Of a stretch of DNA of 64,000 nt, positions 44,833 through 45,204 are shown one piece after another. Location of the stretch: sequence record NC_012638.1, one strand, 5' to 3'. Source of the DNA: Escherichia phage RB14. A program made the translations under genes and the position numbers. Below the pieces are notes generated by a model. The model did not search any database, was not told the DNA's origin, and worked only from the letters and a program-made list of their open reading frames with translations. Each line of letters opens with the position of its first letter. Within the stretch, counting starts at the first letter, position 1.

Positions 44833-45204
44833 TCAATACGGTTTAGCATCAAATTTTCTCTCAATTTCAGGTGTGAAATATAATTCTTTACCACGTTTGG
44901 AAAAGCGACCAATAATATGATAATTATTCTCATCAAACGTGATATTACCAATATCCATAGCTTTCAACCAAATATCGATATTTCTATCCAGCTTTATGTC
45001 AAAATTCCAATACGGAGAACTATTACCGAAAATACTGCAAGCGGATTCAGTGAAACAACTGCTATAAATCTTGTCTTTAGGAACTACTAATTGATAGACG
45101 CCTTTAATAAACTGAGGACCCTGCCATTTAGGTTGTTTCGCGTCTTTTTCTAATAGAATAGGGTAATAATTAAAATTCATATTTTCCACCCCGCGGTATT
45201 TCAT
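44833..45204 (-). CDS. Hypothetical protein inserted between frd and td (123 aa; alternative start at 45180)
   Basis: ATG-initiated ORF overlapping the extended 3' end of frd; no recognisable motif. Confidence 0.5.

Follow-up and report, generated by a model that had tools for sequence, protein, structure and literature searches.

A conserved PHROG 1928 gene at the frd–td junction of Escherichia phage RB14 and its T-even relatives

In bacteriophage T4 (NC_000866) the frd gene for dihydrofolate reductase specifies a protein of 193 amino acids, and its TGA stop codon overlaps the ATG start codon of td, the thymidylate synthase gene, in the sequence ATGA. The T4 td gene carries the I-TevI intron. 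The mobile promoter cassette of T4-type phages (promoter-early stem-loop type) is a repeated unit of an early promoter and a stem-loop that flanks a variable ORF.

An earlier note on the DNA of Escherichia phage RB14 described the T4 stop/start overlap correctly, as the NC_000866 sequence confirms, and the layout that it described for RB14 (11 extra frd codons and a 123-aa ORF between the two genes, followed by a td gene without an intron) also holds, the last point being borne out by a full-length Pfam match. Its reading of the ORF as an unusual insertion of mobile DNA is not supported, the ORF being found at the same site in ~360 records in all, T2 and T6 among them. The best overall explanation, and a reasonably probable one, is that the ORF is a genuine gene of the PHROG 1928 family that is ancestral in its position after frd; a role accessory to the thymidylate/folate enzymes is a much more doubtful part of it.

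Layout and coding status of the frd–td interval

The window is a 64,000-nt stretch of the RB14 record (NC_012638.1), and the genes concerned are on its minus strand, where the order by transcription is gene 32 (47119-48027), several small frd.x ORFs, frd, the ORF, td, nrdA.2, nrdA.1 and nrdA. The interval has the following coding features:

45170..45784, minus strand: frd (dihydrofolate reductase), 204 aa, matching Pfam DHFR_1 (E = 4e-19) and PHROG 316
45170..45205, minus strand: C-terminal extension of frd, 11 codons and a stop, with an A-run 2 nt longer than in T4
44833-45204, minus strand: ATG-initiated ORF of 123 aa between frd and td, opening ATGAAATACCGC...
45186..45192, minus strand: Shine-Dalgarno-like GGGGTGG, as read from the sequence, 5 nt upstream of the conserved ATG
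44833..45180, minus strand: conserved CDS of 115 aa including its TGA stop, start ATG at 45180, a member of PHROG 1928
43927..44787, minus strand: td (thymidylate synthase), 286 aa, intron-free, with its true start codon at 44785-44787

The genes that flank the junction are the same as in T4, and the two sequences are identical up to TATAAA and again from AAATGAAACAATAC; unlike T4, in which frd and td have zero DNA between them, the window proves in the alignment to have 418 nt separating codon K193 of frd from the ATG of td. Over the 193 residues of the T4 protein, Frd of the window is 98% identical (BLASTP). The Pfam Thymidylat_synt model covers td end to end (positions 1-266 of 266), and td is taken to be intron-free because its continuous 286-aa ORF matches the whole of this model. 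An interrupted td with an I-TevI-like ORF, the arrangement of a group I intron, is absent from the window td, in contrast to that of T4.

The 11 additional codons of frd result from two extra A residues in an A-run (TATAAAAATG in the window vs TATAAATGA in T4) that shift the reading frame past the T4-type TGA. The extended frd stop codon falls 11 nt inside the 115-aa ORF, creating an 11-nt overlap of the two genes. The T4 ending of frd, TAT AAA TGA, is also that of T2, T6, AugustSocin and most relatives. Most relatives therefore combine a 193-aa Frd with a 20-nt gap to the ORF, whereas the window combines a 204-aa Frd with an upstream in-frame ATG. The same in-frame extension recurs in no fewer than 16 further records (BECP11, slur03/08/14, PhiZZ30, JB75, Ec_O157kw and others), and a diverged copy of the locus in Mosigvirus Shf125875 also has an in-frame frd extension, with different residues; because it is common to these records, the extension is regarded as a real recurrent or old variant and not as a sequencing error. 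Frd of other genera also continues beyond the VY(K/E) motif, and there the start of the family member overlaps the frd end by 1-23 nt or abuts it. In T2 and T6, 20 nt lie between the frd stop and the ORF, so that coupling of the overlap type is not universal.

That an ORF lies between the genes was rightly noticed in the earlier note, but the first ATG, from which its 123 codons were counted, is not the conserved start. Relatives have the second ATG, at 45180, in common as start codon (115 aa, MNFNYYP...), and the in-frame upstream ATG of the window (45202-45204) would give 123 aa. The first ATG opens merely ATG AAA TAA in T2, T6, AugustSocin and most relatives; the annotated gene in T2, T6 and most relatives begins 20 nt further on, at the equivalent of the 45180 ATG, and it is to this second ATG that the N-termini of all distant homologues align. 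The GGGGTGG motif upstream of it probably acts as the ribosome-binding site.

Comparison of the ORF in the window with its counterparts in T2, T6, AugustSocin and Ec_O157kw reveals 5-15 synonymous and no non-synonymous differences, and the 115-aa proteins of the window, T2 and T6 are 100% identical. Against the more distant ORF of Shf125875 there are 33 synonymous and nine non-synonymous differences (dS 0.88, dN/dS 0.037). The dN/dS ratio is 0-0.05 in the ORF's own frame and greater than 2 in both other frames. As far as the substitution pattern of aligned sequences can tell, the ORF is a genuine protein-coding gene under strong purifying selection and not a chance ORF.

The PHROG 1928 family and the alleles of the junction

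The ORF protein matches the PHROG 1928 HMM with E = 1.1e-35 (residues 12-119 against profile positions 2-125 of 126). The statement in the earlier note that the protein has no recognizable motif is accurate for Pfam but not for PHROG 1928, which is matched at E = 1e-35. Members of this family are recorded in GenBank as hypothetical proteins at the same position and in the same orientation in T2 (XUQ82819.1), T6 (BBF63653.1), RB3 and AR1 (ar1_242), and under the name 'RB32ORF229c'. A word-index protein search retrieved few homologues and an exhaustive HMM search was needed; among 1.84 billion representative proteins it found just 43 clusters, nearly all of 95-139 aa. Two proteins of 848-899 aa (P0036 and P0042) were excluded from the family alignment, their repeated 25-34-residue profile matches being probable repeat motifs. 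One subfamily of PHROG 1928 has an insertion of ~25 residues after an invariant Trp.

The family gene directly follows frd in every locus inspected (the window, L002-L008 and L012-L023). Homologues at 17-63% identity lie immediately after frd in no fewer than seven other genera or lineages. The loci with this gene order belong to Kanagawavirus (L004, L005), Jiaodavirus (L006), Roskildevirus (L007), Gelderlandvirus (L008), the Providencia phages (L012, L013), metagenomic lineages (L014-L020) and one Mosigvirus (L022). In several lineages the HMM search found two tandem paralogues, all matching PHROG 1928, as distant members also do; the same type of search found no paralogue of the ORF elsewhere in the 64-kb window. 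Identities to the window, given for the five lineages with complete frd and td, are as follows:

Four other genera: Frd 44-49%, ORF 31-43%, Td 73-80%
Lineage L019: Frd 48%, ORF 63%, Td 82%

Because its syntenic homologues extend across at least seven other lineages and have diverged alongside Frd and Td, the family is considered old at the frd–td locus.

Some of these loci have peculiarities of their own. The Providencia phages, as represented by PSTRCR_127 (L012:4869-5426), have three more ORFs between the family member and td, one of which (185 aa) matches PHROG 4806, annotated as 'histidyl tRNA synthetase'. In Enterobacter phage Entb_45 (L004:2002-2516), frd is annotated as two pseudogene fragments, and the family member and its paralogue are intact. 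The C-terminal ~40 residues of an NCBI protein of 195 aa (P0017) are identical to the end of a Jiaodavirus-type member (…GNVMVKDDVVSIIGRFEKRGDQLFFTPLQEKFNA); this protein may be a family tail joined to an unrelated N-terminal portion of 150 aa, either by gene fusion or as an artefact of assembly or annotation.

Among the sequence records, the junction and its more distant counterparts are distributed as follows:

This ORF, at least 90% identity: about 361 records (tblastn)
Homologues of less than 60% identity, in other genera: 218 records (tblastn)
An unrelated 68-aa ORF, PHROG 9550, at least 90% identity: about 135 records
Contiguous T4-type junction: 35 records

In total, 579 records match the ORF by tblastn, T2 being among the 100% identical matches. 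In a megablast search with the junction, 357 of 537 phage records cover the ORF, including T6, RB3, RB5-10, RB18 and AR1. Of the 35 records with the T4-type junction, roughly half come from laboratory strains of T4, and RB55 and RB59 are also in this group. No member of the family turned up when all six frames of the complete T4 genome were searched with the HMM (best E = 0.67). The earlier note had reckoned with the ORF being present at the same place in T4 and its relatives, and this is half the case: T2, T6 and the RB phages have it, and T4 does not. Alignment of the junction, which the note had proposed, does reveal a polymorphic site at which T4 is without the ORF, but the ORF is common among T-even relatives. 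Judged from these records, T4 is the exception at the frd|td junction, and the ORF is an ordinary, widespread and already annotated gene.

Three alleles occur at this polymorphic junction, which contains either this ORF, the unrelated 68-aa ORF or nothing. In pSs-1, fPS-65 and JS98 the 68-aa ORF takes up this very junction (98.5% identity in Dhakavirus JS98), and 68-69-aa versions (MSNKLKVKDVP..., PHROG 9550) are located at L009:751-957, L010:751-957, L004:3173-3379 and L019:4670-4879. Like the ORF of the window it is small and hypothetical, but the two are unrelated in sequence, and the start and stop codons of the 68-aa cassette directly overlap its neighbours on either side (the frd stop and the td start). 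It also occurs in non-T4-like Phapecoctavirus phages, at 43% identity, whereas PHROG 1928 is restricted to T4-like phages. Both ORFs are found together in Kanagawavirus Entb_45 and in lineage L019, in the order frd-A-A'-C-td, where C is the 68-aa ORF. About 222 other records have the td intron, some together with the ORF and some lacking it. The idea that the td intron and the ORF exclude each other through co-conversion was rejected, as T6, ECML-134 and others have both, and T2 and the window have the ORF only.

Borders of the extra DNA and its origin

The DNA that distinguishes the window from T4 is delimited by the following features:

45197..45206, minus strand: left direct repeat AAATGAAATA, td-start-like, at the frd end and containing the first ATG (45202-45204)
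44788..44832, minus strand: spacer of 45 nt between the ORF and td, including the td ribosome-binding site AAGG
44780..44789, minus strand: right direct repeat AAATGAAACA, containing the true td start codon

The spacer overlaps a sigma-70-like match (TTGATT at 44831-44836 and TATTAT at 44807-44812, 18 nt apart) that agrees with 9/12 consensus positions, is a consensus match only, and extends 4 nt beyond the spacer into the ORF stop codon. A 32-nt block within the spacer (44797-44828) is missing from Shf125875. Searches for structured RNA in the spacer gave no Rfam match and no significant fold (z = -1.6). A mobile promoter cassette at the ORF was considered and rejected on the grounds of the single, weak, td-side promoter-like match, the occurrence of the 32-nt block only once in the 64-kb window, and this fold score.

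The presence of the family across lineages suggests that it is, as a whole, ancestral to the frd–td interval, with T4 and RB69-like phages representing the gene-less state, and losses from a larger ancestral array could account for all three alleles of Tequatrovirus (A only, C only, none). Deletion between the 8-10-nt direct repeats would yield exactly the T4 junction, and the T4-type junction is rare (the 35 records noted above). The converse course of events, in which the T4-type overlap was ancestral in the T2/T4/T6 lineage, the cassette was inserted just after the td start and T4 never lost a gene, is somewhat unlikely; it has to contend with the synteny of the family in at least seven other lineages, and with the age of the cassette and its repeat, both of which are carried by the window and Shf125875 copies at a dS of ~0.9. 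It could have proceeded by an illegitimate join at ATGAAA together with a crossover between homologous td sequences, the donor being a phage with the order frd-ORF-td. A td-start-like duplication does bracket the extra DNA, as the earlier note had seen when it placed an insertion just after an ancestral td start (the cassette is flanked by AAATGAAA(T/C)A), although insertion as a mobile element is not supported; the left ATG AAA TAA of T2 and T6 is useless and resembles a relic of a td start, and the junction sequence of Mosigvirus AV114 is identical to that of T4. In addition, the window ORF is 63% identical to the L019 copy at only 48% identity of Frd, which hints at lateral acquisition, and the sequence that ends frd in L019 (GGTGAAAAGCGATGAATTTT) is similar to the stretch immediately before the ORF in the window (GGTGGAAAATATGAATTTT), if ~20 additional nt, which include the td-like ATG, are passed over. 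Because of the left-border relic and the high similarity to L019, re-acquisition of the gene into a T4-type junction is retained as an alternative to ancestral presence with loss in T4.

The frd|td junction also appears to separate stretches of different history. Over its first 183 aa, which correspond to the part encoded by exon 1 of T4 td, the window Td shares 96% identity with Mosigvirus AV114 and 91% with T4 (BLASTP), whereas Frd, so similar to its T4 counterpart, is only 57% identical to that of AV114 (L011). These identities point to a mosaic or recombination boundary at the junction, with td exchanged between genera.

Other junctions in the neighbourhood are also compact. The td stop codon overlaps the nrdA.2 start (ATATGA) at 43927-43930, td ending ...MAI; in T4 and Ec_O157kw the td/nrdA.2 junction is 24 nt longer (GTGTAATTTTATTATTGCGAGGAT) and has its own ribosome-binding site, and this is the second compacted gene junction that flanks td in the window. 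Between 38287 and 50303, the window has none of T4's homing-endonuclease genes or introns, an arrangement that resembles that of T2. Genes 32 and 59 have no segG between them (99-nt gap), mobE and nrdB.1 are absent between nrdA and nrdB (51-nt gap), and nrdB is a single continuous ORF of 392 aa.

Protein features and candidate roles

The AlphaFold2 model of the ORF protein (pLDDT 82.7, pTM 0.76) depicts a small, mostly beta domain in which the order of the strands and the single helix are compatible with an OB-like barrel. The OB-fold is a five-stranded closed beta-barrel with a helix between strands 3 and 4. Resemblance of the model to known OB-fold domains (RPA14/32, Stn1-Ten1, S1 and the Cdc13 OB) is sub-significant, and the predicted fold is possibly OB-like. 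W19, G91, K95 and G97 are invariant in the family and Q16, G27, Y29, F93 and F102 nearly so; the median pI is 8.7 (mildly basic), and the family alignment has no conserved set of acidic or histidine residues. This pattern of W, K and G residues without a conserved acid/histidine set fits a small binding module rather than an enzyme. The homology and structure searches that the earlier note had suggested led to PHROG 1928, but not to a Pfam or PDB family, and the fold matches did not reach significance. Searches of Pfam (39 members, nuclease domains included), PADLOC, PDB sequences and Rfam gave no meaningful match for the family; a match to TagH in the PDB search (E = 0.003 with profile A3, 0.3 with A5) involves an ABC-ATPase segment and was judged to be due to chance.

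In two BASEL records (AugustSocin and FriedrichZschokke) and in ValerieMcCarty04 the protein is labelled 'putative homing endonuclease', and a free-standing homing endonuclease or its remnant, which would make the ORF a mobile, selfish gene at a known hotspot, might be suspected from the presence/absence polymorphism beside an intron/homing-endonuclease hotspot and from a GVYQL...KIY stretch that superficially recalls GIY-YIG. Alignment of the family profile with I-TevI by hhalign, however, gives a probability of 0.8% over 12 columns around 'GIYQ', and none of the 39 members matches Pfam GIY-YIG (PF01541), HNH or another nuclease domain. Neither the Y of 'GIY' nor the second motif is conserved, the conserved Arg/Glu catalytic pair is absent, and the mostly beta fold predicted is not the alpha/beta fold of GIY-YIG enzymes. 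At 115 aa the protein is also without a DNA-binding domain, and its strictly syntenic position and strongly purifying selection do not fit a selfish element. The homing-endonuclease reading is essentially refuted by the I-TevI alignment, the Pfam negatives, the fold and the synteny, leaving it extremely improbable, and the GenBank label rests on nothing detectable.

With regard to function, the ORF belongs to an early/middle nucleotide-metabolism cluster (32 - frd.x - frd - ORF - td - nrdA). From its position and overlap it would be co-transcribed with frd, its product being made alongside DHFR, and its translation is probably coupled to that of frd. Co-expression with DHFR and, more weakly, a role tied to the thymidylate/folate enzymes are proposed because the gene keeps its place after frd and often overlaps it. 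A tentative and rather doubtful proposal is that the protein is a dispensable accessory factor that would assist the phage thymidylate/folate enzymes by binding Frd, Td or nucleic acid. A more specific version, an OB-like partner that would be co-translated with Frd in most T-even-type phages and would physically tether or regulate the thymidylate/folate arm of dNTP synthesis, is unlikely; its binding targets might be, for example, Frd or Td, or ssDNA or mRNA. Adjacency to frd could also reflect a permissive insertion site in the operon instead of functional coupling, and the use of the same junction by the unrelated 68-aa ORF in about 135 records argues against such coupling. T4 and Mosigvirus grow well without the ORF.

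A quite different role, that of a host-takeover or counter-defence factor that neutralizes a host protein and is next to frd only incidentally, would suit a small, phage-restricted protein encoded in an early-gene region, present in some members of a genus and not in others, duplicated in tandem in several genera, with an alternative cassette at the same site in other isolates, and dispensable in T4, whose genome has no copy. This role is quite unlikely, since dN/dS (0-0.05) is very low, unlike that of typical arms-race genes, the position after frd is fixed across lineages that share just 17-30% identity, and the family matches neither PADLOC nor any other known family.

As a genome feature the ORF is ordinary and already known, with hundreds of T-even genomes listing its product as hypothetical, and literature searches with the locus, accessions and locus tags found no paper that discusses it. 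PHROG 1928 is a modest pointer to a constrained family that is syntenic with frd and restricted to T4-like phages, and it has escaped study since T4 lacks a copy. If the protein does prove to be a partner of Frd, the absence of the gene from the model phages T4 and RB69 would be the sole reason why it escaped notice for decades. Annotators should avoid propagating the label 'putative homing endonuclease' for the protein. T4 does not typify its genus where frd meets td: ~361 records have the ORF of the window and about 135 the 68-aa ORF, vs 35 with the direct overlap of frd and td known from T4.
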